In this document: positions 128 through 50,628 of the stretch, piece after piece
How the letters are laid out: every line of letters starts with the position of its first letter
Numbering within the stretch: position 1 is the stretch's first letter
From: a virus
Taxonomy: Duplodnaviria > Caudoviricetes
Length of the DNA stretch: 61,078 bases
Virus record (IMG/VR): IMGVR_UViG_3300036979_000267
Span: 1 to 61,078 of that record
Strand: one strand, 5' to 3'
The notes under the pieces: generated by a model
The model's input: only the letters and a program-made list of their open reading frames with translations
What the model was told of the DNA's origin: nothing
Database searches by the model: none
Translations under genes and position numbers: made by a program

Positions 128-611
128 TGTCTTTCACACCTTGCCAGATTTGGCTGCCCACTTCTGAGGCGGCGGAACCGAACCCGCGCTTGACGCCTTC
201 GGCCTGCAGGTAGTTCTTGATCTGCGAGGCGCGTACCCGGGCGACGCCGGGCGGCAACTTGTCGGTATTGTCGATGTCCAGATACCCGGCCTTCATGGCC
301 GCGTCGATCTCGCTCAGGTTGGAGCCGCTGAACTTCTGGCCACCCGACAGGTACATGCCAGATGCTGTGTCGTACCCGATGATGGGGTCCGCGTTCGCGG
401 CCGCTGGGGCAGGTGCGGGCGTGCGGGGCGCGCGCAGCGCGTTGAGTTGTTGTGCATACGCCTCTGGGTTGGCCATGGGGTCTTGCGCAGCCACACGGGA
501 CCGGGGCATGCTGAGTCCTGCCCGGGGGACAGTGCCCATGGCAGCCTCTGCTTTTGCGCCGCCCATAAGGGCCTCGTCAGAACGCGTGTTTGAATCGAAC
601 AAATTAGCCAT
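1..611 (-). CDS. 5' part of the giant internal virion protein; continues across the circular junction into 55347-61078
   Basis: ATG at 611 (MANLFDSNTRS...) is in frame with ORF 55347..61070 after circularisation (61070 equals position 119; 611-119=492 nt). Confidence 0.8.
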   Translation of the reverse strand, partial: MANLFDSNTRSDEALMGGAKAEAAMGTVPRAGLSMPRSRVAAQDPMANPEAYAQQLNALRAPRTPAPAPAAANADPIIGYDTASGMYLSGGQKFSGSNLSEIDAAMKAGYLDIDNTDKLPPGVARVRASQIKNYLQAEGVKRGFGSAASEVGSQIWQGVKDIPQMGVRAAQFAAPAGSAAEEFLKQTGDEFDTGQAQYNPDVY

Positions 612-657
612 ACGCAACCCCAGAGTTAACTGAGGGTATTGTATAGCGGCAGGGGAT

Positions 658-2274
658 TTATGACCCCATTTTTACCGGGACCATGGAAGACTCCGACATG
701 CCCACAGGAGTCATGACCCCGGGAATGTACCGCAGCACCTGATTGCCTCGGGTTACGAAGATGGTTTTGCCATCGTCCGGGGAGACAATCTTCAGTCCCT
801 CGGTACCCCCGAAGATTTTCGCAGCCTCTGCAATCGCCTTCTGCTGCTCCAGCATCCGGGCGTTCACGCCTTGGGCATCTGCCACAGCGATTTCCCCTTC
901 GGCCTTGAGCGCAACCTTCCGGCGTTCGGCGGCGGCGGCCTGTGCCCGGGCACGTTCTTGTTCGCTGATTTGGGCGTACTCCGTGTCGCTGAGTTTGTCT
1001 TGGGCATACAAATTGGCGAAGTGGGCTTCCCGCACGGAGTACAGCAGGTCCGCGTATGAGTCCTGATACTGCTGAAGCTGCTTGGGATCGTTGGTTACCT
1101 GCGCAAGCTGCTGGATTTGTTGCATCTTGAACTGGGCCATGCGCCCCTGTTGCCCGGCCATGTTCGACAACTGCTCGGGAGTGAACCCGCCAGAGGCGAT
1201 AACGCGAGAGATGGGAGTCTCGGGAGCGGCAGCGGTGGGAGCGCCGGGCACTTGTTGCGCAGGAGCCCCGCCAGCCGCTTGCTGCCCGGTTACCTTGGCG
1301 ACATAGTTGCGGGTCTCGGCGGGCATTTGGGCAAGGTTTGCGCCGCTGGCCTTCCACCGGTCGTAGTTGCCCGGACCCCAGTTGTAGGCAGCAGCAGCCT
1401 CTGCTTCATTGCCGTATCGGTTCAGCATGGCTTGGGCGTAGTCGCGCCCAACACGGGACCGTTCTTCCACAGAGTTATTTTGCGCAGGACGAACGCCGTA
1501 GCCGGGGTCTCCGCTGGTCCTGTCCATCACCTGCATGTCGCTCTTGGCTGTGCCTTGGCCCGGCACATTTGGGCCAATGGCCGCCATGTTCCCACCGCTC
1601 TCCGCTTGCCGGATACGGGAGATGAAGTCGGTGCCCGGGGTAGGGGTAGGGGTAGGGGTAGCCGCACGACGTGCCTGTGCAGCCGCTTGGTCGGCCGCGC
1701 CGCCAGTCCGCGCCGCTTCTTCGCTACGCAGGGCATCCATCCGAAGTTGCTCTGGCGTAGCTTTAGCCTTGGGGGATTGCAATCCGTACCCGGGGGCGCT
1801 TATAAGGTGTTTTGCTCCGGAGGCTATAAGGTTGGGCACGAAAGCCAAAGCCTTGCCCACACTCTCGCCATACGGTGTATTTAGGTTTGGGTCAGACCCC
1901 TCCGCGTGCCATAGGTGCGTGCGCTCGGGCTCGGGCTTCGTGGGCGGGATAGCTGCTTTACGGCCGGTACCAGCCCGAGGGACATACGCGCCCATGTTTC
2001 CAGCGTCGGCTACTGGTTTCGCAGCGGCAGCCGGTGCAGCCACAGTGGACGCAGTGGACGCAGGCCCACCCGTGGTTCCCCACTGAATCCGCGACGTGTC
2101 GGGCAATGCTTCCTGTGTGGGCATGCGGCGAAGAATCTCGGCCTGTCTCAGTTTTTCCATGCGCGCCTGTGCGGCGCCAGTGTCTGCCACCACCTGACGT
2201 TGTCGGGCCAGCGCTTGGTCATCAAGGGTGCGCTCGGTTCCCCGCGCGGTACCGTATTCAGCTAAGAATCCCAT
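658..2274 (-). CDS. Internal virion (ejection) protein with lytic transglycosylase (SLT) domain
   Basis: SLT motifs IRQAESGGN, MQVM, AAYNWGPGN and ETRNYV within an Ala/Gln-rich scaffold. Confidence 0.85.
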   Translation of the reverse strand: MGFLAEYGTARGTERTLDDQALARQRQVVADTGAAQARMEKLRQAEILRRMPTQEALPDTSRIQWGTTGGPASTASTVAAPAAAAKPVADAGNMGAYVPRAGTGRKAAIPPTKPEPERTHLWHAEGSDPNLNTPYGESVGKALAFVPNLIASGAKHLISAPGYGLQSPKAKATPEQLRMDALRSEEAARTGGAADQAAAQARRAATPTPTPTPGTDFISRIRQAESGGNMAAIGPNVPGQGTAKSDMQVMDRTSGDPGYGVRPAQNNSVEERSRVGRDYAQAMLNRYGNEAEAAAAYNWGPGNYDRWKASGANLAQMPAETRNYVAKVTGQQAAGGAPAQQVPGAPTAAAPETPISRVIASGGFTPEQLSNMAGQQGRMAQFKMQQIQQLAQVTNDPKQLQQYQDSYADLLYSVREAHFANLYAQDKLSDTEYAQISEQERARAQAAAAERRKVALKAEGEIAVADAQGVNARMLEQQKAIAEAAKIFGGTEGLKIVSPDDGKTIFVTRGNQVLRYIPGVMTPVGMSESSMVPVKMGS

Positions 2275-2275
2275 A

Positions 2276-3283
2276 TTACACTCCTACTTGCGTTTCGGCT
2301 TTTTTCTTGGACAAGCCCAGCACGTCCTCGTACAGGGAGTATGCACCACCTGTGGTGTCCCCGGTATCGCTCGCCGTGCCCAAGCCGGTAACATAACTCG
2401 AATCGTACTGCGGGGTAGCCTGCGGCACGTACTGGATCCCGCTGAGTCCTACACGACGAGTTCCCTCTGCGCCAGAACGGGCAACCTCGGCAGCGGTCGT
2501 AGCCCCGGTAGTTGCGCCCACCATGCCCCGACGCTTGTCGGCCGCCACAGTAGCGGCGCTGTGGCCCCTACCGGCCGCTTCTGTGGCGGCCTTCTGTGCC
2601 TGCCCAGAGATACGACTCAGTGTGCCCGCGTACGCCTGCCTGCCCGCCCGCTGGGGGTCTATGGCCAAGTAGTCCGACACCTGTTGGTCCACCAGTGCGT
2701 TCTTTTTGCTCACATTCGCAGCATTCGCAGCCGTGGCCGCGTCGGCCTGACCCCGGTATTGCTCGTTGTACGCTTGGACAGGGGCAGCGGCCGCGCGCTT
2801 TGCTTGATTGCCGAGGTACGCAGAAACGCCCTTGCCCACCAAACGCACACCCTCATTTTCTCCGGCCCATTCCCGTATCTTGCCGAGGCCCGCATTGACC
2901 TTGTTCATCATAGTGCCGCCGGTATCCCCAGTGACCCCGGTATTCCCAGTCGTCCCCGTATAGCCGCCGTACCCGCCCACAGCGGTTTCTCCCGGTTTGC
3001 CCATATCTACCCCGGTGCCCATGGTGGCTGCCGAAGAGACTGGCGTTGCCGCAGGCATACCGGCGACAGGGGCTGTAGGGGATGCTGCTGCTTGGTTGTC
3101 CCAGTTGCCAGCAACATAATTGGCTCCGGCGCCCAGCGCAGCGCCAAGGCCCATGGCCTGCAGATCGCCCTCGCTCTTGCCACCAGTCAGGCGGTGGACT
3201 ACCAGTCCTGCTCCCGCACCAGCTATCTCAGGGTTGGACTGCGCCCAATCCCACGCACTGTTTACATAGTCCATGAAATCCAT
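2276..3283 (-). CDS. Putative internal virion / DNA-pilot protein
   Basis: Gly/Ala-rich 335-aa ORF with hydrophobic Gly stretches, tightly packed in the ejection-protein block. Confidence 0.6.
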   Translation of the reverse strand: MDFMDYVNSAWDWAQSNPEIAGAGAGLVVHRLTGGKSEGDLQAMGLGAALGAGANYVAGNWDNQAAASPTAPVAGMPAATPVSSAATMGTGVDMGKPGETAVGGYGGYTGTTGNTGVTGDTGGTMMNKVNAGLGKIREWAGENEGVRLVGKGVSAYLGNQAKRAAAAPVQAYNEQYRGQADAATAANAANVSKKNALVDQQVSDYLAIDPQRAGRQAYAGTLSRISGQAQKAATEAAGRGHSAATVAADKRRGMVGATTGATTAAEVARSGAEGTRRVGLSGIQYVPQATPQYDSSYVTGLGTASDTGDTTGGAYSLYEDVLGLSKKKAETQVGV

Positions 3284-3285
3284 GA

Positions 3286-4917
3286 TTAAGCCTCCGCTTT
3301 CGGAACTTCCGAATACCGACGCAAGAGCGCGTCAAAAAAGTCACGACCCTTGGCACGGACTACGTGCTCGGGTATCACATACTCGCCGTTGGACACCTTG
3401 ACCGGCCCGCCCGTGGACAGGTTCTGTGTACCGATGGAATCGCTGCGCCCGGTGCCCGGCCCCTGCAGCATACCGCCATCTGGTCCGCCCGTGGGGTTGA
3501 CCATCTGCGCCTGCGATGTCGGTGGGATTTGTCCGGCAGGTGTGGGTTGCCCTTGGCCCGGCTGCGCCATGCCGCCACCTGACTGCTCCAGCGCCCGTGT
3601 AACGGACAGGATTTTGATGATAGTCATGGGGTCGTACGATGGGGGCAGCGGGGACATGCCCTGTGCAGCAACAAACTGGCGAAGCTGTGGGTATAGCTTG
3701 GGGTTCTGCATGCTGGCCATAGCAATCTGGCCCATCACAGTTATCTCCTGCGGTGTCAATTCGCCAGACTGCAGCAGGGGCTGCATGGTCTCCATGATTT
3801 TCTGGCGGAACTGGGGGTTGCGCGCCATCTGGTTCACGCGCATCTCGATCATCTGGGGCGACGTGTCTGCCCCCATGCCGGGACGGGACATACCGGGACC
3901 GCCCGTAGGGCCGCCGTTGGCAAAGCCCATGGCCAGAAGGGGACCGCCGCCGACCTCGCCGCCGTCAGCATAACCAGACATGGAGAGGCCCACCGGGCCA
4001 CCGTCTGCCATTCCGCCGCCAGACCATCCGCCTCCGGGATTTTCAGTGCTGGTACGACTTTCTGTATCAGAACTGGTGTCTGGGCCAGTGTCCGAAGTAG
4101 TGTCTGGGCCAGTGTCCGAAGTAGTGTCTGGGCTGGTATCGGCGCCGGGCGCGGAAAACGATTCGGTTCCTGTATCTGGATACCCATAATACCCACCGCC
4201 CATCGTGGCGGGGTCTTGCTGCATGGGGTTGGCCGCAGGCACATCGGCCAGCGGAGTGCCGAAGAATCCGCCAGACCCGAAGGCCGCGTTCTGCATGGAC
4301 CGGCCCACAGGGAACCCCGCGCCCACGTTGGCCGCCGTCTGCGCAGCCATGGAGCTATCAGGTCCAGTTACGCCAGTGTTATATCCTTGATACGCGTCGT
4401 ATGCAGCGCGTCCAGCACCCAACGCCAGACCGACTGGGCCGGGCAGAAAACTAGCGGCGCCGACCATCGCCTTGCCGTAGTTCTGGGCACCGATGTCTGC
4501 GCCAATCCCAGCGACTTTACCCGCAGTACCCACCGCGCGGGAAACTCCGAACAGCCCAGCGTCCCTCGTGCCAATAGCGACGGGGGCCAGCACATTGGAA
4601 ATACCCGAAGCTACCTTGGAAAAATCCTGCAGCGTACCGGGCGAACTAGGTGTGGTTTGGAAAAGTCCTGCGCCCGGCGACTGGGTATCGTTGTCGAGTG
4701 TATCTAGTCCGGGGGTAATGTTCCCAGACGATCCGCCAGGGGAATCTCCCGACCGGCCGCCCGAAGGCATCGCCTGTTCTGGGGGCAGTATTTCGGGGGC
4801 CGCGGCGTTTACCCCCGGAACGGGTATGGACACGGGTGGCGTAGCAAAATAGTTCCCTACGCTGCTAGACGCACCGCGTGCCCCACCGAGAGATTTCCGT
4901 GTTTTCTGTGTTGCCAT
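3286..4917 (-). CDS. Putative internal virion protein
   Basis: 543 aa, Gly-rich; repeated (M/Y/F)A(D/N)GG motifs; C-terminal GPGTGRSDSI...SNGEYVIP motif typical of phage ejected/tape-measure-associated proteins. Confidence 0.65.
   Translation of the reverse strand: MATQKTRKSLGGARGASSSVGNYFATPPVSIPVPGVNAAAPEILPPEQAMPSGGRSGDSPGGSSGNITPGLDTLDNDTQSPGAGLFQTTPSSPGTLQDFSKVASGISNVLAPVAIGTRDAGLFGVSRAVGTAGKVAGIGADIGAQNYGKAMVGAASFLPGPVGLALGAGRAAYDAYQGYNTGVTGPDSSMAAQTAANVGAGFPVGRSMQNAAFGSGGFFGTPLADVPAANPMQQDPATMGGGYYGYPDTGTESFSAPGADTSPDTTSDTGPDTTSDTGPDTSSDTESRTSTENPGGGWSGGGMADGGPVGLSMSGYADGGEVGGGPLLAMGFANGGPTGGPGMSRPGMGADTSPQMIEMRVNQMARNPQFRQKIMETMQPLLQSGELTPQEITVMGQIAMASMQNPKLYPQLRQFVAAQGMSPLPPSYDPMTIIKILSVTRALEQSGGGMAQPGQGQPTPAGQIPPTSQAQMVNPTGGPDGGMLQGPGTGRSDSIGTQNLSTGGPVKVSNGEYVIPEHVVRAKGRDFFDALLRRYSEVPKAEA
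4076..4133. repeat. In-frame 24-bp tandem repeat (about 2.4 copies) encoding TSDTGPDT
   Basis: gtgtctgggccagtgtccgaagta at 4076-4099 and 4100-4123, partial at 4124-4133. Confidence 0.85.
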
Positions 4918-25667: not shown

Positions 25668-28070
25668 CTACGTCCACGCGCCGATATTGACTCTCTCGAC
25701 TTCCCGGACGGTATTGCCCATGTACGCCCCGGACTGCTGGCCGTCCGCGTGAAGCGCTAGATACTGGAGTGCGTCACAGTTGCTCACCAGCACGCCGTTG
25801 GCATAGTACGCCCCAGCCCCCTCAACGGCTATCGCGTAGACGCAGGCGGGCTGCGCTAATGGCAGCACCTGCACACACCTTAGAGCATGTTTTTGTTTTC
25901 CGGTACTTGTTCGCTTGGAACTCTGTACCGCAAACCACGCACGTGCGCGTTTCGTCATCAACTCCGCTGGCGACTCGGGCCATGCCCTGACAACTGGGGG
26001 AGCAGAACCCCCGCTTGCGGGCTCCGGCAAAGCCGTCGTACAGCTTACCGCACTGTGTGCAGACATGCTGTTGCTTTTCCCGCCCAATCCACGTAGATTT
26101 CCCGTGCTCCCGGTGCCAAGCCAGTCCATCAGGGCTACCATGCCACTGCGCAGCGGCGAGCCGGGCCGCTGCCAGATGCTCGGGCATACCGAACGTACCG
26201 TCGGCGATGCGTTCGAGGGCATGTTGCCTGCTGTGGTCGGTGCCGAGCATGAGGGCAAGGTTTTCAAGGCGGTTGTCGCTGGTGTTTCCATTGTCGTGGT
26301 GCACGTGGTGCTTGGGGGGTATTGGCCCGTTGTGGAACTCCCACACGTACCGGTGCATGTAGACCGTGCGGCGGCCAGACTCCTCATAACCAGCTTTGTA
26401 GTACCCCCGGCCTTTGCGATAGAACCGAATGCCGTTGAAAATCTGAACCGGATGTTTTGTAGCCATGGAGCGCTCCGAGTGTGGATGCTGTCCAGTATAT
26501 CAGAATACTGGAGTGCGTCAAGCGCAACCCACCCCCGTTGTGTGAGTATGGGATGGTCGGGCGTCCCCTCAAGCACCAGCCCGTCGGACAATTCCGCGCG
26601 CACCACGGGCGCAACACGGCTGTGGACCGCTGTGACCCTCCGGGGGCCAATCGGAGTCTCCACCAAGTCCCCCACGCGCAAAAGGTCCACGTCCGTCGCG
26701 CCATCCGGGGTAGCGACGCGCGTACCAGCCACAAAGCAGATGTGAGAGGCCATGTTTTTCTCCGGCTCGTCGTCCATCTCGCCCGTTTTCTTGGCCTTGT
26801 ACCGGTACTTGCCGCGCAAACCCCCAATCAAATTTAAGCACTTGTTGTCCACAAGGAACCCCGCGCCGCCGTCCACCTGTCGGTTGAGGAACTGGTCCAC
26901 CGCCCCGATGCGGGCAATCAGGGAGTTGGTGTGGGCCGAGATAGCCGTAAACCCCTCGGCTTTCAAGATGTCGTACACCGTTTTCTCGTCGGTCTGCACC
27001 CGCGAGCGTCCAGCGGGGTCGCCGATAACGAGTATGGGCGCCCCGGGAAAGTTCTGCGCCAGTAGTGGTTTCAGTATGGTACGCACGAACCGGAGCACGC
27101 CCATGCCGTCCGAGGTGGCCTCGCCCATGACCAGCAGCCTGCCCTGCATGTCAAGCTGCCCGATGACCGCACTGGGGTTCAACCCGAAGTCCATGCCGAT
27201 GAGCACTGGCCGTACCCCGTTCAGTATGGGTCGCAGCGCGCCCTTGGCGATGTGAAAGTCGGAGTCGAACGATTTCCACACGGGCTGGCCAGACAGGCTC
27301 TTGCCGAACTTCGCGTGGATGTAAATATCTATGTATTCCTCGGATTTCCCAGTTGCGAGCGTTTCATAGTACCCTGAAGGAAGCAGGTGGAGCCAGTCTG
27401 CTTCCGGGCTCGTCCCGCTAGGTTGAATTGTCACGTGTGTGTTCGATGGGGGGTTCGTCAGCAGGCCCTCGAAGTACGTGTCCATATCGGGCGGATTCGA
27501 GGCGCCCCATAGCCGGGCATTGGGGGTTCCGTCGTCCATGACACAGCCCATGCGCGGGTTACCCTTGTCGTCCGTCCCCCATTCCGGTTTGTGGGGCACC
27601 ATCATGCCATCGGGGTATCGACCCAATCGGGCCTGCAGGGCCTCGAAGATGTCCTTGTTGAGTTCGCGGAACTCGTCAATGATGGCAAAGCTCGCTTGGA
27701 GCGACAGCAGCCGCCGTACGTCTTGGGCGTCGTCAAGGCCGCGGAACAGCACATCGCACCGAATGTCACCAACAGACAGCTCAAAGCGCATCTCGGACTT
27801 GTAGTAGGTACCCGCCTCACCGTCCGGGAACCATTTTAGGAAGTCGGGAATGCTCGTGTCACGAAGTTGTTCACGTGTGTTGCGTACGAAAATGCACCGC
27901 GAGCGGCGAAAGCCATCCTTGGCCCGGGCCATGTGCCCAGCGTGGTAAAGCAGCTTCACGATCGCGGAAGTTGTCTTTGAGCTGCCTACTGGTCCACAGA
28001 TGAACGAGATGAACTTTTCCGAGGTAAAGAACGCCTCGGTGCTCGGAACTGGGGTGAAGATCAGGCTCAT
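25668..28070 (-). CDS. terL: Terminase large subunit containing an intein
   Basis: Walker A GPVGSSKT, Walker B IIDEF, nuclease GMDFG and GDPAG; splicing restores the motif SHI|CDALQY. Confidence 0.92.
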   Translation of the reverse strand: MSLIFTPVPSTEAFFTSEKFISFICGPVGSSKTTSAIVKLLYHAGHMARAKDGFRRSRCIFVRNTREQLRDTSIPDFLKWFPDGEAGTYYKSEMRFELSVGDIRCDVLFRGLDDAQDVRRLLSLQASFAIIDEFRELNKDIFEALQARLGRYPDGMMVPHKPEWGTDDKGNPRMGCVMDDGTPNARLWGASNPPDMDTYFEGLLTNPPSNTHVTIQPSGTSPEADWLHLLPSGYYETLATGKSEEYIDIYIHAKFGKSLSGQPVWKSFDSDFHIAKGALRPILNGVRPVLIGMDFGLNPSAVIGQLDMQGRLLVMGEATSDGMGVLRFVRTILKPLLAQNFPGAPILVIGDPAGRSRVQTDEKTVYDILKAEGFTAISAHTNSLIARIGAVDQFLNRQVDGGAGFLVDNKCLNLIGGLRGKYRYKAKKTGEMDDEPEKNMASHICFVAGTRVATPDGATDVDLLRVGDLVETPIGPRRVTAVHSRVAPVVRAELSDGLVLEGTPDHPILTQRGWVALDALQYSDILDSIHTRSAPWLQNIRFRFSTAFGSIAKAGGTTKLVMRSLAAARSTCTGTCGSSTTGQYPPSTTCTTTMETPATTALKTLPSCSAPTTAGNMPSNASPTVRSVCPSIWQRPGSPLRSGMVALMDWLGTGSTGNLRGLGGKSNSMSAHSAVSCTTALPEPASGGSAPPVVRAWPESPAELMTKRARAWFAVQSSKRTSTGKQKHALRCVQVLPLAQPACVYAIAVEGAGAYYANGVLVSNCDALQYLALHADGQQSGAYMGNTVREVERVNIGAWT
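25779..26738 (-). mobile_element. Intein (320 aa) in the terminase nuclease domain
   Basis: Cys1 CFVAGTRVATPDG, block B TPDHPI, block F/G VYAIAVEGAGAYYANGVLVSN, then Cys+1. Confidence 0.9.
25822..26466 (-). CDS. HNH endonuclease with C-terminal Cys (zinc-finger-like) modules, overprinted inside the terL intein
   Basis: YMHRYVWE..NGPIP..HHVHHDNGNTSDNRLENL; CTQC...FCSPSC and CVVC...TCSKVC; GGAG 6 nt upstream of its ATG; different frame from terL. Confidence 0.88.
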   Translation of the reverse strand: MATKHPVQIFNGIRFYRKGRGYYKAGYEESGRRTVYMHRYVWEFHNGPIPPKHHVHHDNGNTSDNRLENLALMLGTDHSRQHALERIADGTFGMPEHLAAARLAAAQWHGSPDGLAWHREHGKSTWIGREKQQHVCTQCGKLYDGFAGARKRGFCSPSCQGMARVASGVDDETRTCVVCGTEFQANKYRKTKTCSKVCAGAAISAARLRLRDSR

Positions 28071-33579: not shown

Positions 33580-33893
33580 AAGTCAAAGTAAACGAAGCAG
33601 TCGGCCCTGTGCTGAACTGGATGGTGGGTTGCGCACTGGACGAGTACAGCCCAAGCGCAGTACCTGAATATTCAACCGACTGGGCACAAGGCGGGCCGAT
33701 CATTGAGTGGGAGAAGATTGATCTGTACCAGTCCACTGGACGCACCTGTGCCGCGATGTGGGAGAACCTACCCGGAGGTGGAAGGCTGATCGCAGAGGCT
33801 AAAGACTGCCCCACCCCATTGATCGCGGGCATGCGCTGCTACGTTTCTTCCCGCTTAGGCGACACCGTAGAGGTTCCAGATGAGCTGGCCTAA
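33576..33893 (+). CDS. NinX/DUF2591-like phage protein
   Basis: LNWMVG..., YSTDWAQGGPIIE and TPLIAGMRCYV...LGD.VEVPDEL motifs. Confidence 0.75.
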   Translation: MKVKVNEAVGPVLNWMVGCALDEYSPSAVPEYSTDWAQGGPIIEWEKIDLYQSTGRTCAAMWENLPGGGRLIAEAKDCPTPLIAGMRCYVSSRLGDTVEVPDELA

Positions 33894-34386
33894 GACACCC
33901 ACTAAGCACGGCCATGCAACACGGGCAAAGGGAATTAGCCCTACATACCGGACTTGGCAGGCCATGAATACCCGCTGCACAAATGTTTCGGTCAAGTCCT
34001 ACGAAGACTACGGTGCACGGGGCATATCAGTGTACGCAGGGTGGCTCGTGTTCGAGAACTTTTTTGCCGACATGGGCGAGAAGCCTGCAGGCACAACGCT
34101 TGAGCGCATCGACAACGAGAAAGGCTACGGACCTGACAACTGCAAGTGGGCGACCAAGACGGAGCAAGCACGAAACACTCGGGCTAACAAGTTCGTCAAC
34201 TACAAAGGAAAACGTATGACGCAAGCTGAATTCGGAGAAGTCATTGGGCATAACCAATCTACAGTCAGCTACCGACTACGTGCTGGCTGGACACCTGAGC
34301 AAGTAGCCAACACACCAGCACATACAGGGAACCGTGTGGTGTCCAAGTTGGGCGAGGAAGTGGAGGTGCCTGATGAACTCGTCTAA
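33880..34386 (+). CDS. Free-standing HNH homing endonuclease
   Basis: TYRTWQAMNTRC...YGARGI...FFADMGEKP.GTTLERIDNEKGYGPDNCKWAT..EQARN. Confidence 0.88.
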   Translation: MSWPKTPTKHGHATRAKGISPTYRTWQAMNTRCTNVSVKSYEDYGARGISVYAGWLVFENFFADMGEKPAGTTLERIDNEKGYGPDNCKWATKTEQARNTRANKFVNYKGKRMTQAEFGEVIGHNQSTVSYRLRAGWTPEQVANTPAHTGNRVVSKLGEEVEVPDELV

Positions 34387-35232: not shown

Positions 35233-35276
35233 CTATTCATGTACAATACGGACTTAACAAACTGTAAAGGATTTTT

Positions 35277-35885
35277 ATGTACAACCCAACAATAGCACCG
35301 CTCACTGCACGCGACCTAGAAATGTATGAGTTGCTGCTCGCGGGCACTACCTTAGCGGACACGGGGCGCAAATACGGGGTGAGCCGACAGCGAGTGAAGC
35401 AGGTGGTAAACAAACTATCCGCATGGGGCAAGCCGACAAACGCAAAAGCAGTACGCGATGCATCTAAGCATGCGGGGTACTTAGAGCAGAAAGTTTCCAA
35501 GTTTGGAGCGTCGTACTCTGAGATTGCAGCGAGCCCAGAACTACTAGCCCTTCTAAAAAAGCGGATAACACTGAAACGCAACCACGCGATGCAGAACGGG
35601 GTACCTTTTGACCTTACGATATCTGATCTATACCCGCTACCAGAAGTATGCCCTGTACTAGGTATACCGATTCACTACGGGACAGGCCACACGGGGGCTG
35701 CGGACAACGCTATGTCGATAGACCGGATTGATCCCAGCAAGGGCTATGTCCGAGGGAATATACAACTAATGTCGATGCGCGCCAACCGCATAAAGAACAA
35801 CGCAACCCCGGACGAATTGCGGCGGGTAGCGGACTTCTACGCCCTCTGCGCTTTACATTCGGAAAAAGTACCGCTTGACAAATAG
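35277..35885 (+). CDS. HTH plus HNH-like endonuclease
   Basis: N-terminal TLADTGRKYGVSRQRVKQ HTH; C-terminal CPVLGIPI...SIDRIDPSKGYVRGNIQLMSMRANRIKN. Confidence 0.8.
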   Translation: MYNPTIAPLTARDLEMYELLLAGTTLADTGRKYGVSRQRVKQVVNKLSAWGKPTNAKAVRDASKHAGYLEQKVSKFGASYSEIAASPELLALLKKRITLKRNHAMQNGVPFDLTISDLYPLPEVCPVLGIPIHYGTGHTGAADNAMSIDRIDPSKGYVRGNIQLMSMRANRIKNNATPDELRRVADFYALCALHSEKVPLDK

Positions 35886-47345: not shown

Positions 47346-47665
47346 AAAACGAAAAAGATGTGAAGGCTGCTGTGAAGGCGATCATGGGCCGCCCCGTGGA
47401 CTTCCTGTGGTACTACATGCCTGCGGCCAATGGCTTCGGCACGCCGGGCATCCCGGACTTCATGGGAATCTGCTACGGCCGCGCGTTTGCCATCGAGACC
47501 AAGTTCGGTGCCGGTAAGCGCACTGCATGGCAGGAGAAGCAAGCGGACGCAATCAACTGGGCCGGAGGGCAATACTGGCTGGTGAACGAGAAGAACGTGG
47601 AGGACTTCGCTGTTTCGTTTTCGCAGTTCGCACGCGAATGCGCAGCCCGCAACGGGATCATGTAA
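47342..47665 (+). CDS. VRR-NUC nuclease / resolvase
   Basis: EKDVK, GIPDF, AIETK, T.WQ motifs. Confidence 0.85.
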   Translation: MKNEKDVKAAVKAIMGRPVDFLWYYMPAANGFGTPGIPDFMGICYGRAFAIETKFGAGKRTAWQEKQADAINWAGGQYWLVNEKNVEDFAVSFSQFARECAARNGIM

Positions 47666-49662
47666 TGCTCGTAGTCCCGGCTTCCCGCAAACTCGTCATC
47701 GACTCACCCAGCTATGCGCAGGTGGCGTCGGTGATTCCCCACGCGAAGGCATTTACCCATGCTGGGCAGAACCTACTTGCGCTGCACCACGGCGTTGAAG
47801 AGTCACTGGTGCTTAAAAACTTTGGCTTTAGTGTGCCTGCGCCTATCTTGTCCTACTACTCGTGGCCTGCACGCTTTACGGCTATGGAGCATCAAAAGGA
47901 CACGGCAGCGTTTCTGACGATGAACAAGCGGGCGCTGGTGCTGAACGCGCCGGGCACTGGGAAGACCCTATCGGCCATCTGGGCTGCGGACTTCCTGCTG
48001 GACGAGGGAGTGGCCAAGCGTATTCTGATCGTGGCGCCGCTATCTACCCTGACTGTGGTGTGGGGCCGGGAGTTGTACCACCACTTACCCCACAGGGCTT
48101 TCAAGGTAGTCACAGGAGATCGGAAGAAGCGGGAAGAGTTGCTGGCCACACCCGGGTGTCAATACTTCATCATCAACCACGATGGCTTCACGAACATGCA
48201 GGACGCCCTGAAGGATTTCGACATCGTGATCTATGACGAGGCCACCGCACTAAAGTCGCCAAGCTCACAGCGGTACAAGATATTTGCGAAGTGGATGTCG
48301 AAGCACGACCCATGGCTGTGGATGCTGACGGGGACACCCATCTCCCAGAGCCCTGCGGACGCATGGACACTTGCGCGCCTTGTGAATTCACCGGCGTGCC
48401 CGAAGAGCTACACCACGTTCAAGGATATGGTGATGCAGAAAATTACGACGTTCAAGTGGGCCGCGCGGCCGGACGCCCTGACGACATGCAAGAAGATTTT
48501 GCAGCCGTCGATTCGCTTTTCGCTGGACGAGTGCAAGGACTTGCCAGACACGAATTTTGTGGGGCGCAAGACCACGCTGACGCTGCAACAGAAGAAGGCG
48601 TTCAAGGAGATGCAGGAGAAGGCGGTGACGTTTTTCTCTGGCGCGGAGGTATCCGCACCGAACGCTGCAGTGGTGCTGGCCAAGCTATTACAAATCTGCT
48701 GCATAGCGGGCGATACGGATGTGCTAACCGGGAGGGGGTGGGTGCCCATACAGACCGTTACTCCGTTGGACATTGTGTGGGATGGGGCGGAGTGGGTAAC
48801 CTGCGCCGGGTCTGCGCTACAAGGGTATAAGACTGTGGTGGACTGCGCGGGTGTGTTCATGACGCCCGACCACAAAGTCCTTTCGACAGCAGGGTGGGTA
48901 GAGGCGAGGGAGTTTTTGTATGGCGAATCACGCAGTAGACCTACTAGGGCAGACGTTCGGGTTCCTGACGGTGCTGTCCCGAGCAGAGCCACCCACGGGG
49001 AAATCCAAGACCGCCCGAATTTCCCGCGGGGACCCGGACCCACTGCGGCGGGTCCGGTAGCTGTGTATGACGTGCTGAACTGTGGCCCGAGAAATCGTTT
49101 TGTGGTGCGCGGACGCAACGGGGAACTAAGCATCGTGCACAACTGTGGCGTAGTTTATTCTGACACAGATCGAGTTGAAATAGATGCCAGTGACAGGTAT
49201 AATACGTTCACCGAATTGCTCGATGAAATAGGCGGCAAGGTAATAGTGTTTTGCCCTTTACGGGGAGTGCAGGATTGGTTGGAAACGTCATTGCGCAAAG
49301 GTGGCTACGATGTGGCATCTGTGCATGGCGGTGTGAGTAAGACAGCGCGTAATCAGATATTTAATGACTTTCAGCATACAAGCGGCATTCAGGTTTTGCT
49401 GGCACACCCCAAGGTGGCCGCGCACGGACTGACGCTGACGGCGGCGAAGGACATTATCTGGTTTGCCCCTATCTACTCACTGGAGCAGTATGAACAAGCC
49501 TGTGCTAGAATACGTAGGCTGAGTACAGAAGGCAAGACGACGGTGTGGCATTTGTACGCAACACCATTTGAGGCGGAGCTTTACAGGCGACTCCACCAGA
49601 AACGAAAAGTGCTTGGGGACTTTTTGGACTTAGTAAATGGAACGAACGACGACTCTGATTGA
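47665..49662 (+). CDS. SNF2-family helicase containing a mini-intein
   Basis: PGTGKT, IVAP, YDEA, LTGTP, KLLQIC|CG, HGLTLTAA and YEQACARI motifs. Confidence 0.9.
   Translation: MLVVPASRKLVIDSPSYAQVASVIPHAKAFTHAGQNLLALHHGVEESLVLKNFGFSVPAPILSYYSWPARFTAMEHQKDTAAFLTMNKRALVLNAPGTGKTLSAIWAADFLLDEGVAKRILIVAPLSTLTVVWGRELYHHLPHRAFKVVTGDRKKREELLATPGCQYFIINHDGFTNMQDALKDFDIVIYDEATALKSPSSQRYKIFAKWMSKHDPWLWMLTGTPISQSPADAWTLARLVNSPACPKSYTTFKDMVMQKITTFKWAARPDALTTCKKILQPSIRFSLDECKDLPDTNFVGRKTTLTLQQKKAFKEMQEKAVTFFSGAEVSAPNAAVVLAKLLQICCIAGDTDVLTGRGWVPIQTVTPLDIVWDGAEWVTCAGSALQGYKTVVDCAGVFMTPDHKVLSTAGWVEAREFLYGESRSRPTRADVRVPDGAVPSRATHGEIQDRPNFPRGPGPTAAGPVAVYDVLNCGPRNRFVVRGRNGELSIVHNCGVVYSDTDRVEIDASDRYNTFTELLDEIGGKVIVFCPLRGVQDWLETSLRKGGYDVASVHGGVSKTARNQIFNDFQHTSGIQVLLAHPKVAAHGLTLTAAKDIIWFAPIYSLEQYEQACARIRRLSTEGKTTVWHLYATPFEAELYRRLHQKRKVLGDFLDLVNGTNDDSD
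48700..49143 (+). mobile_element. Mini-intein (148 aa) in the SNF2 helicase
   Basis: Cys1 CIAGDTDVLTGRGW, block B TPDHKV, block F VYDVLNCGPRNRF, terminal VHN then Cys+1. Confidence 0.9.
48920..49060 (+). pseudogene. Internally deleted endonuclease ORF in the +1 frame of the helicase intein
   Basis: GAGGGAG RBS; MANHAVDLLGQTFGFLTVLSRAEPPTGKSKTARISRGDPDPLRRVR*; DLLGQTFGFLTV matches DLAGQRFGALQV of HNH 49637. Confidence 0.7.
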
Positions 49663-50224
49663 CCTCGCGGGGCAGCGGTTTGGGGCGCTACAAGTGTGGT
49701 GCCGCCTACCGAATCGGGGGCGCGCCGTGTATTGGTTTTGTGTATGCGACTGCGGCGCTACTGCAGAGTGCTCGTCTGGTAACTTGCGCGGCGGCAAGTC
49801 TCGTAGCTGCGGATGCGTCCGCACAAGGCACGGCGGCTGGAAGAGCAAAGAGTATGCGAGTTGGCGACACATGCGCCAACGATGCGACAACCCAGAGCAC
49901 GCGGCGTACCGCAACTATGGTGGTCGGGGCATAACGTACTGCGCCGCTTGGGATGACTTCGCAGTGTTCTTGTCGGACATGGGTGCTGCGCCAGCGGGTG
50001 GGACACTGGAGAGAATCGACAACAACAAAGGGTATGCCCCCGATAACTGTCGGTGGGCCACGAAGAAAGAGCAAGGGCGCAACCGGCGTACGAATACGCT
50101 GAATACCGATACCGCGCGGCAAATACGCGCAGCGGACGGAGACCAGCAGGGGATTGCGAAACGCTTCGGTGTTTCGCAAGCGACAGTGAGTAGGGTTAAA
50201 AATTGTAAACAGTGGAACTATTAA
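49637..50224 (+). CDS. Free-standing HNH homing endonuclease with C-terminal HTH
   Basis: DLAGQRFG, WFCVCDCG, SCGC, YGGRGI, TLERIDNNKGYAPDNCRWAT, IAKRFGVSQATVSRV. Confidence 0.9.
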   Translation: MERTTTLIDLAGQRFGALQVWCRLPNRGRAVYWFCVCDCGATAECSSGNLRGGKSRSCGCVRTRHGGWKSKEYASWRHMRQRCDNPEHAAYRNYGGRGITYCAAWDDFAVFLSDMGAAPAGGTLERIDNNKGYAPDNCRWATKKEQGRNRRTNTLNTDTARQIRAADGDQQGIAKRFGVSQATVSRVKNCKQWNY

Positions 50225-50235
50225 GGAGAAATCAA

Positions 50236-50628
50236 TTGAACTTTGAACAAGCAGGCGAAAAATATATCGCCCTTCGCAATGAGGTAGCAGCCATTGAAGC
50301 CGAGGCCAAGACCGCTGTGGCCGAGAAAAAGGCCACCATGCTGGACCTCGAAAACTGGTTTACTTTGCGCGCCCAAGAAGAGGGCATGGTGAAGATTCCA
50401 ACATCAGTGGGGACCGCGTATTGGTCCACACACAATGCCGCAACAGTTGCTGACCGCAATGCGTTGTTCGAGTTCTGCAAAGAAAACAACACGTGGGATT
50501 TGATTGAATCCCGCGCGTCAAAAACCGCCGTGAAAAGTTATGTTGAAGGCCACGGTGTACCCCCGCCCGGAGTGAATTTCTCTTCCGTGCAAGTCTTCAA
50601 TTTCCGTAAAACCACCTCAAAGGAATAA
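50236..50628 (+). CDS. Conserved phage replication-module protein
   Basis: TTG start after AAGGAG; YIALR...T.VGTAY...L.E.RASKT...PPPGV pattern. Confidence 0.65.
   Translation: MNFEQAGEKYIALRNEVAAIEAEAKTAVAEKKATMLDLENWFTLRAQEEGMVKIPTSVGTAYWSTHNAATVADRNALFEFCKENNTWDLIESRASKTAVKSYVEGHGVPPPGVNFSSVQVFNFRKTTSKE

Follow-up and report, generated by a model that had tools for sequence, protein, structure and literature searches.

How did a short open reading frame (ORF) in the +1 frame of a helicase intein come to resemble the start of an HNH homing endonuclease? The question is raised by IMGVR_UViG_3300036979_000267 (Duplodnaviria; Caudoviricetes), a complete virus record of 61,078 bp with direct terminal repeats and 58.7% G+C, which was analysed over its whole length and is referred to here as the window. 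The first-pass annotation had described a 148-amino-acid (aa) intein at 48700..49143 that contains a GAGGGAG ribosome-binding site and an ATG at 48920 opening a 46-aa +1-frame ORF, and had proposed that this ORF is the remnant of an overprinted endonuclease gene. The intein, the ribosome-binding site, the ATG and the ORF were all confirmed from the sequence, and a probability of about 0.88 is assigned to the reading that the helicase intein is a collapsed two-gene overlapping element with a dead HNH stub. The features of this locus are as follows.

47662..49662, + strand: SNF2-family helicase gene (precursor of 666 aa including the intein; from Pfam, PHROG and the N-termini of homologues)
47662..48699, + strand: N-extein of the helicase
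48700..49143, + strand: class-1 mini-intein, 148 aa (from translation, fold model and insert-free relatives)
49144..49659, then stop, + strand: C-extein of the helicase
48906..48912, + strand: Shine-Dalgarno (SD)-like GAGGGAG (from sequence; 7-nt spacer to the relic ATG)
48920..49060, + strand: probable relic of a nested HNH homing-endonuclease gene, 46-aa ORF (+1 frame relative to the intein; from profile score)
48920..49018, + strand: relic codons 1-33 (MANHAVDLLGQTFGFLTVLSRAEPPTGKSKTAR), homologous to HNHs; N-terminal strand of the zinc module, ending just ahead of the missing W-x-C-x-C-G
49019..49060, + strand: relic tail ISRGDPDPLRRVR and TAG, HNH origin not recognisable
49017..49054, + strand: junction filler, 38 nt, GC-rich, unaligned to long alleles
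49076..49078, + strand: second +1-frame stop, TGA, from the block-F Leu-Asn codons; corresponds to the end position of the nested HNH ORF in long allele L046

The helicase ORF (47527/47662..49662, +) matched Pfam SNF2-rel_dom (E 1.3e-17) and Helicase_C (E 1.4e-14) as well as the PHROG DNA helicase family phrog_62 (E 6.3e-91), and a start at 47662 (MLVVP...) agrees with the N-termini of the homologues P0007-P0009. Distant-mode blastn of 47600..50300 against GenBank phages found no near relative, the matches being short and limited to the HNH region downstream. The intein is inserted at KLLQIC|C, and its translation reads CIAGDTDVLT...TPDH...VYDVLNCGPRNRF...IVHN|C. It carries the splicing motifs C1, block B T55-P-D-H58, block F VYDVLNCGPRNRF with D124 and block G IVHN, and the extein residue +1 is Cys; C1, T55 and H58 are invariant across a 17-sequence alignment of related inteins. 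Thus, the N-terminal nucleophile, block B, the block F Asp and the C-terminal His-Asn plus Cys that define a class-1 intein are all present. A Hint fold is predicted by an AlphaFold2 model based on 17 related sequences (mean predicted local distance difference test, pLDDT, 86.2; predicted template modelling score, pTM, 0.79), as the best Foldseek matches of the model in the PDB were all inteins (6bs8, 6rix, 2in0; prob 1.0, TMq 0.53-0.58), those matched being Msm and Mch DnaB, Mtu RecA, Npu DnaE and gp41-1. Residues 97-112, located in the region where full-size inteins hold the endonuclease, were modelled with pLDDT < 50. Pfam did not recognise the 148-aa intein, and NCBIfam gave only a weak match to a RecA intein model (E 0.002). 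Because the catalytic residues are intact and the host gene is the replication-module helicase of a complete virus record, the intein presumably still splices.

In the +1 frame, the relic ORF extends from the ATG at 48920 through 46 codons to a TAG at 49058..49060, while the bases of the preceding GAGGGAG contribute in frame 0 to the conserved splicing-domain motif A-x-E. The relic has the N-terminal D-L-x-G-x-x-F-G-x-L-x-V strand of phrog_374-type HNH endonucleases and matches phrog_374 at positions 192-215, in the same register as the start of the protein encoded by a free-standing HNH gene downstream at 49637..50224 (positions 190-359). The reported likeness of the two starts was reproduced by BLASTP, which aligned the relic with the 49637 protein at 11 of 24 identical residues (46%, E 8e-4). 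The back-translated DLxGxxFGxLxV pattern, which was chosen post hoc with both sites already known, occurs twice in the window, in the relic and at 49637, against 0.02 occurrences expected from 100 shuffles.

The similarity was closer with the HNHs nested in long inteins of other phages, as BLASTP of the relic against their N-termini gave 55-66% identity over 29-33 residues, with a best E of 1.3e-8 and 19 of 29 residues identical to L070. Against a metagenome profile of 34 unique nested HNHs, nearly all of them from the KLLQI helicase site, the relic scored 23.3 bits over positions 3-39, and with a 4-seed HNH profile it was found at E 0.097. In a six-frame control, all stop-to-stop segments of the window of at least 30 aa were compared with a profile of 39 unique nested HNHs, and the relic segment 48902..49057 ranked 4th of 1120 (E 0.016). 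The three segments above it are all real HNH genes (49637..50221, 5.8e-49; 33871..34383, 3.7e-46; 35268..35882, 1.6e-3), and the segment directly below it had an E of 0.2.

The relic follows the long-allele pattern up to ...TGKSKTAR and departs from it where W-x-C-x-C-G is due, the profile alignment ending at position 39, immediately before this zinc motif; the break had been placed correctly by the first reading of the sequence. No Cys occurs in the relic, hence the zinc-ligand cysteines (W-x-C-x-C-G ... S-C-G-C) are absent, and its 46 codons contain neither the HNH (His-Me finger) core (Y-G-G-R-G-I ... N-N ... N-x-x-W) nor the C-terminal helix-turn-helix (HTH). Judged by these losses, the relic would be a gene fragment rather than a functional phrog_374-type member, and the window allele, with a 33-codon stub only, a derivative of the overprinted-endonuclease intein class and not a present member of it.

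The contributions of different parts of the relic to its profile score were separated by shuffling. When residues 1-18 were shuffled, the mean score was -3.1, compared with 23.5 for the real sequence, a value that 0 of 500 shuffles attained; shuffling of residues 19-33 reduced the score to 16.1, with 1 of 500 shuffles equalling the real one. Shuffling of residues 34-46 caused no change, 152 of 500 shuffles equalling or exceeding the real score, and profile alignment of these residues with nested-HNH C-termini gave no match. The earlier suggestion that the ORF ends in a C-terminus-like RISRG tail was therefore abandoned, and the HNH signal is confined to the first 33 codons.

These codons overlap sequence that is also used in frame 0. 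The first ~22 relic codons lie over frame-0 residues 74-96, the model has pLDDT 81-91 for residues 71-90, and the frame-0 motif ...RAxVR[LV]PDG is conserved across all helicase-site inteins. Since they double as conserved splicing-domain codons, the first ~22 codons are held by selection on splicing, while the next 11-14 codons, which lie largely over the start of the low-confidence linker, are simply not yet erased. The same overlap allows another explanation, that the +1 similarity merely shadows the conservation of frame 0 in a mini-intein that is ancestral or never had an HNH, R-A-x-V-R-[LV]-P-D-G happening to read GQxFGxLTV. The genetic code does tie the two readings together, and the motif is both conserved and part of a confidently modelled fold. 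However, DLxGxxFGxLxV also occurs in free-standing HNHs that have no intein around them (49637 and phrog_374), the match extends into residues 19-33, where little of the underlying frame-0 sequence is confidently modelled, and the SD and ATG have been retained. Together with the mini-inteins described below, this makes a mere shadow of frame 0 very improbable as compared with descent from an HNH gene.

A collapsed element should have full-length counterparts, and these were abundant. A tblastn search of GenBank phages with the helicase intein retrieved 193 records, the best full-length matches being APSE DNA polymerase inteins (43% identity, 306 aa), and a protein search with the intein part of the helicase retrieved 61 proteins, many of them SNF2 helicases of ~813-853 aa with an ~300-aa intein at the same site. 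The insertion-site consensus of the longer helicase alleles is KLLQI[ACS]|C...VHN|CG, and the viral contig L004 encodes such a helicase with a 217-aa +1 ORF, starting MVMPAKDLTGQKLGYLVVIKRAGSTTGKAKRAKWLVHCICG..., at the same spot. Viral contigs were scanned for the block-F pattern N-C-G-P-R-N-R-F, which gave 60 loci; intein limits were set by phmmer with the N- and C-terminal splicing parts of the window intein, and the HNH profile was then run on six frames. Among 41 long inteins of 280-324 aa (3 loci from GenBank phage records and 38 from viral contigs, L004 included), the HNH was found in the +1 frame in 38, in the +2 frame in 3 and in frame 0 in none, and the alternate frame was open over 215-295 codons. 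A metagenome scan with the helicase alignment yielded 510 related stretches, 80 of which were kept, and 41 inteins were delimited in 40 loci; each of the 40 inteins with 267 aa or more had an intact +1 HNH (E 3e-55 to 1e-80, 189-277 codons open). Overall, the HNH of long inteins was thus in +1 in 78 of 81 and in +2 in 3 of 81. At the helicase site itself, all longer alleles carry an intact HNH in +1 at the same position and none carries one in frame 0, which is the outcome that had been predicted beforehand for a search of this kind.

The expression signals of the nested genes are shared as well. In most long alleles, in the consensus of their DNA profile and in the window, the HNH ATG is preceded by an SD and lies 4-6 codons ahead of the D-L-x-G motif. 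The long-allele SD is GGAGG-like, and its frame-0 reading is the conserved splicing-domain motif A-[EK]-E. The native HNH stop falls in or beside the block-F codons in the long alleles L046, L001 and L009, and the equivalent TGA is kept in the window at 49076..49078. The HNH of the long alleles would be the enzyme that drives homing, and the stub in the window may still be translated.

Separately, a single metagenomic helicase ORF (L126, 772..4279) was found to hold two inteins of the family, starting at 2015 and 3146 and inserted at KLQQLA|C and LLVHPK|C, each with an intact +1-frame HNH.

To locate the loss, a DNA profile of 924 positions was built from 30 unique long alleles and aligned with the window by nhmmer. 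Window positions 48700..49016 correspond to profile positions 1-317 (E 6.5e-65) and 49055..49143 to positions 836-924 (E 2.6e-18), so that the window allele is without 518 profile positions (318-835). The net loss is 480 nt, that is, 160 codons, and all frames were kept, which bears out the proposed in-frame deletion of the endonuclease core. The filler between the two aligned parts, 49017..49054, encodes in frame 0 a Gly/Pro-rich disordered linker. A GC-rich 8-bp hairpin at 49034..49057 was considered as a deletion or regulatory signal and rejected (z -0.74; folding equalled or bettered by 47 of 200 shuffles).

The unbroken alignment from the intein start to 49016 also bears on where the stub came from. 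It could have been copied from the start of the neighbouring HNH gene at 49637 by duplication or gene conversion, rather than being left by the intein's own endonuclease: only 0.7 kb separates the two, the motif pattern occurs nowhere else in the window, and BLASTP aligns them at E 8e-4. In contrast to what a local copy would predict, the relic is nearer to the nested HNHs of other phages than to 49637, over longer alignments, and its frame and its placement with respect to block B are those of the nested gene in all long alleles, within sequence that aligns continuously with theirs. Of the explanations weighed here, a local copy is the one given the least credence, and the 49637 gene would be context, not the source of the relic.

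The collapse of the intein's own endonuclease gene can be pictured as follows. The ancestor would have been an intein of ~300 aa acting as a two-gene overlapping mobile element, with a Hint splicing domain and a stop-free junk linker in frame 0 and, in the +1 frame of the linker, a complete HNH comprising the N-terminal zinc module, the HNH core and the C-terminal HTH. For its translation, this HNH would have had a separate SD and ATG within the last part of the N-terminal splicing lobe, and its ORF would have ended in or by block F. A multiple-of-three deletion with a net loss of 160 codons would then have removed the zinc ligands, the catalytic core and the HTH, and the helicase/intein frame would have stayed open, preserving splicing. 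What would be left in +1 is the SD, the ATG, 33 homologous codons, 13 unrelated codons and a premature TAG. Such a stub could not be a nuclease, and the intein would now be an immobile mini-intein, a decay stage of the homing cycle.

The allelic states at the helicase site fit such a cycle. Among 61 loci with both extein flanks in one ORF, 37 had no insert (0-14 residues between the flanks), 23 had a long intein and 1 had a mini-intein; because intein patterns served to pick the loci, the proportions should not be taken as frequencies. Empty, long and mini alleles at one site are what is expected for homing elements, a cycle that the data support.

The single mini-intein of the metagenome set, L066 (156 aa), sits at the same helicase site. 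Compared with the long allele P0043, it is near-identical on both sides of one clean 153-codon gap, and its +1 frame reads MANPAINLVGLRFGYLTVIARNGTS|AYGIKYVTLYRRLKCGW..., in which the HNH N-terminus (profile positions 2-31) is fused to the C-terminal HTH (184-217). The relationships were examined in a tree of 102 inteins, built by a quick search from the 121 splicing-domain columns only, with Shimodaira-Hasegawa-like approximate likelihood ratio test (SH-aLRT) support. Every mini-intein adjoins long inteins in it: the window intein is sister to P0007 plus P0008 (303 aa each, SH-aLRT 89), L066 to P0043 (309 aa, support 97), and P0046 (142 aa) to P0056 (303 aa, support 82). The 6 mini-inteins require 6 separate changes on the tree, and the well-supported branches force at least 4. 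Mini-inteins have thus arisen repeatedly, and the earlier idea of a class with a life cycle gained ground accordingly.

The 4-seed HNH profile was also run on the 11 mini-inteins (114-197 aa) of the phage/viral set, where L026 matched at 6e-4, L028 at 2.5e-3 and L021 at 0.89, and 8 gave no match. L026 (IMGVR_UViG_3300021090_000086) is a 135-aa mini-intein at the polymerase SYGGKL|C site and another collapsed stub; its +1 frame reads ...AIDITEQRFHYLTAMHYAGSN...STAYYR..., the N-terminal strand being joined to the C-terminal HTH piece of an APSE-type nested HNH. The HTH pieces kept by L066 and L026 are inexplicable by frame 0, and the mini-inteins sit singly among long inteins on the tree; both observations run counter to a mere shadow of frame-0 conservation and agree with loss from a nested gene.

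The persistence of the SD, the ATG and 33 codons might instead mean that translation of the 46-aa stub continues and that the peptide has a separate function, such as that of a DNA-binding or regulatory fragment. Such a function would suit the canonical 7-nt spacing of the intact SD and ATG, the 46 open codons and the HNH-like character of residues 19-33 over a largely poorly modelled linker. On the other hand, frame-0 constraint explains the SD and the first ~22 codons, the HNH core is lost together with all four cysteines that bind zinc, the tail is unrelated sequence with a premature stop, and most mini-inteins of the family are without a relic (in addition to the 8 of 11 without a profile match, 1 more reached only E 0.89). 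A functional stub is therefore about as improbable as the shadow explanation, and a dead stub remains the favoured interpretation.

Several points weigh against a collapsed two-gene element and were set against the evidence above. The relic ORF had no match in Pfam or NCBIfam, and its sole PHROG match, to phrog_374 (HNH endonuclease), was at E 0.21. The frame-0 motif R-[VL]-P-D-G overlaps FGxLTV, the strongest part of the match, so part of the similarity is kept by splicing-domain selection and not by HNH descent alone. The right-hand endpoint of the deletion is undefined; since the 38 junction nt are unaligned and the tail carries no HNH signal, the collapse may be more complex than a single deletion, or old. 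Many forks of the intein tree are unresolved, given its 121 columns and quick search, and P0007 and P0008, the closest long alleles, were compared as protein sequences.

Inteins of intermediate size or unusual structure were also noticed. In the L079 intein (start 1642, 362 aa), a size variant at the same helicase site, the C-terminal part of the HNH is matched twice, profile positions 170-211 being repeated, and the L083 intein (start 2554, 267 aa) at the helicase site is shortened, with a +1 HNH that is without its C-terminal part. P0020, P0022, P0023 and P0039 have 259-aa inteins at the helicase site and are known from frame-0 proteins alone. These variants are possible decay intermediates. 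P0010, a 1016-aa helicase, carries a 152-aa mini-intein at KLLQIC|C and a second large insertion in the Walker-A region (NDMG|CVDAGTEYL...FLSGN|TGKT) that resembles an intein of another family.

Elements of the same architecture are partly on record. In APSE-1, a Hamiltonella phage (NC_000935.1), GenBank annotates the HNH coding sequence P46 inside the DNA polymerase P45. Similar to the window, the P45 intein has a homologous splicing domain (43% identity over 95% of the query) and an HNH of the same family, which lies between blocks B and F in +1, as deduced from the coordinates, with the frame-0 shadow R-[LV]-P-D-G. In contrast to the window, the host gene and site are those of a DNA polymerase and not a helicase, and the intein has 306 aa with an intact HNH, whereas the window holds the collapsed form. 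P46 is annotated from an internal ATG with 141 codons, while the open +1 frame comprises 222 codons; ahead of that ATG this frame includes DITGLRVGYLTA...C-x-C-G...SCGC and reads ...AKDITGLRVGYLTAINYHGSDGKKSIWKARCTCG...SCGC, a full N-terminal zinc module. The annotated start of P46 is thus probably too late. The locus extracted here (L001) is 1501..2418, with the annotated P46 at 1931..2353.

In Sodalis phage SO-1 (NC_013600.1), the HNH gp39 lies inside the DNA polymerase gp38 (L002: gp38 594..3782, gp39 2078..2836). Its N-terminal splicing domain is related to that of the window (46.6% identity, residues 1-73), and its nested HNH belongs to the same family and has the full N-terminal zinc module, but unlike the window the HNH is in +2. 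The record labels the insertion a 'type I self-splicing intron', yet frame 0 is open and contains intein blocks (CLHRHTQVLT...LVAHN|C).

Alternate-frame endonucleases have also been described from actinobacteriophages. The available sections of a 2025 preprint (Gosselin, Arsenault, Gogarten, 10.1101/2025.01.02.630785) report non-canonical inteins in which frame 3 holds an endonuclease VII-like gene, and others whose LAGLIDADG or VSR-like genes are antisense. Its authors propose that such inteins originated when free-standing endonucleases invaded, predict decay to mini-inteins and state that a dedicated survey is needed to find decay relics. As presented there, these inteins resemble the window family in that their splicing blocks flank an endonuclease ORF read in another frame, with an open, structureless linker in frame 0. 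They differ in that the out-of-frame gene is endonuclease VII-like and in frame 3 while HNH cases are in-frame, whereas the window family has its HNH in +1 (rarely +2), occurs in phages of Gram-negative hosts and environmental contigs, and includes an observed decay relic. The ShiLan domain, where a phage DNA methylase carries an insertion with an out-of-frame HNH (Arsenault, Gosselin, Gogarten, Genes 2025, PMC11855218), shares with the window family, in the accessible portion of that paper, a zinc-finger HNH in an alternate frame, an open host frame and a stop at the very end of the insertion; no splicing domain is detectable in it according to the same portion, in contrast to the predicted Hint-fold intein of the window.

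Mini-inteins in general derive from bifunctional inteins by endonuclease loss, as stated in the part of a review available to us (PMC7765530). The classical ones described there are like the window in having empty, full and mini alleles and in arising by internal deletion of a full intein with splicing retained. Their endonuclease domain is in-frame and its loss leaves no separate ORF, whereas the overprinted gene of the window leaves a stub that keeps an SD and an ATG and is translatable.

Thus, the overprinted-endonuclease architecture is partly known, from APSE-1 P45/P46, SO-1 gp38/gp39 and the two 2025 papers of the Gogarten group, and the window element is a decayed derivative of a known, poorly described kind. 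No description of the +1-frame HNH intein family or of its collapsed stubs was found in the literature searched, which did not extend to the supplementary tables of the 2025 papers. The wider proposition, on balance slightly favoured, is that an alternate-frame HNH intein family, absent from that literature, spans several phage genes (DNA polymerase, SNF2 helicase); that its HNH is never in frame, so that it is an obligately dual-coding, two-gene mobile element; and that repeated multiple-of-three deletions leave possibly translatable stubs as datable fossils.

The main value of the locus is that the window, L066 and the long alleles together document a decay path of a widespread dual-coding intein family, with intact, recently collapsed (L066) and older collapsed (window) states all at one insertion site. 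They provide a concrete sequence-level example of the decay step predicted by the homing-cycle model and, in its available sections, by the 2025 preprint. The alternate-frame architecture is not a curiosity of actinophages; it is the rule in a widespread family, with at least 510 metagenome stretches and 193 GenBank phage records matching the splicing domain. Annotators miss or shorten such nested genes, as seen from the P46 start and the intron label of SO-1 gp39, and mini-inteins with long unannotated linkers deserve three-frame scans. Further, the overlap imposes measurable dual-coding constraints (SD and ATG in the N-lobe, stop in or near block F), which can be used to study the upkeep of overprinted genes.

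A second intein with a nested HNH, in the large terminase gene (terL), and further HNH genes were found elsewhere in the window.

25668..28070, - strand: terL gene (phrog_2, E 4.6e-22)
25779..26738, - strand: terL intein, 320 aa, CFVAGTRV...VLVSN|C
25822..26466, - strand: HNH ORF nested in the terL intein, 214 aa, intact, +2 frame (phrog_15471, E 8e-35)
33880..34386, + strand: HNH-type gene without the N-terminal zinc module (nested-HNH profile from position 81 on, E 3.7e-46)
35277..35885, + strand: HNH-type gene, weak match (nested-HNH profile E 1.6e-3)
49637..50224, + strand: free-standing HNH endonuclease (phrog_374, E 2.1e-55; nested-HNH profile E 5.8e-49)

The frame-0 linker of the terL intein is low-complexity junk. 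As had been noted before, the terL case differs from the helicase case in HNH family and frame and is independent of it: the terL-nested HNH showed no similarity to the helicase-type HNHs (E > 1), and a search of the window genome with the helicase intein found no second intein of its type at E <= 0.01. Two unrelated inteins with an overprinted HNH, one intact and one collapsed, thus coexist in this phage. The free-standing HNH at 49637 overlaps the 3' end of the helicase gene by 26 nt and is 41-45% identical to nested HNHs; it could target a nearby site or act in trans on the region. Counting the terL-nested gene and leaving out the helicase stub, the 61-kb phage has at least 4 HNH genes.

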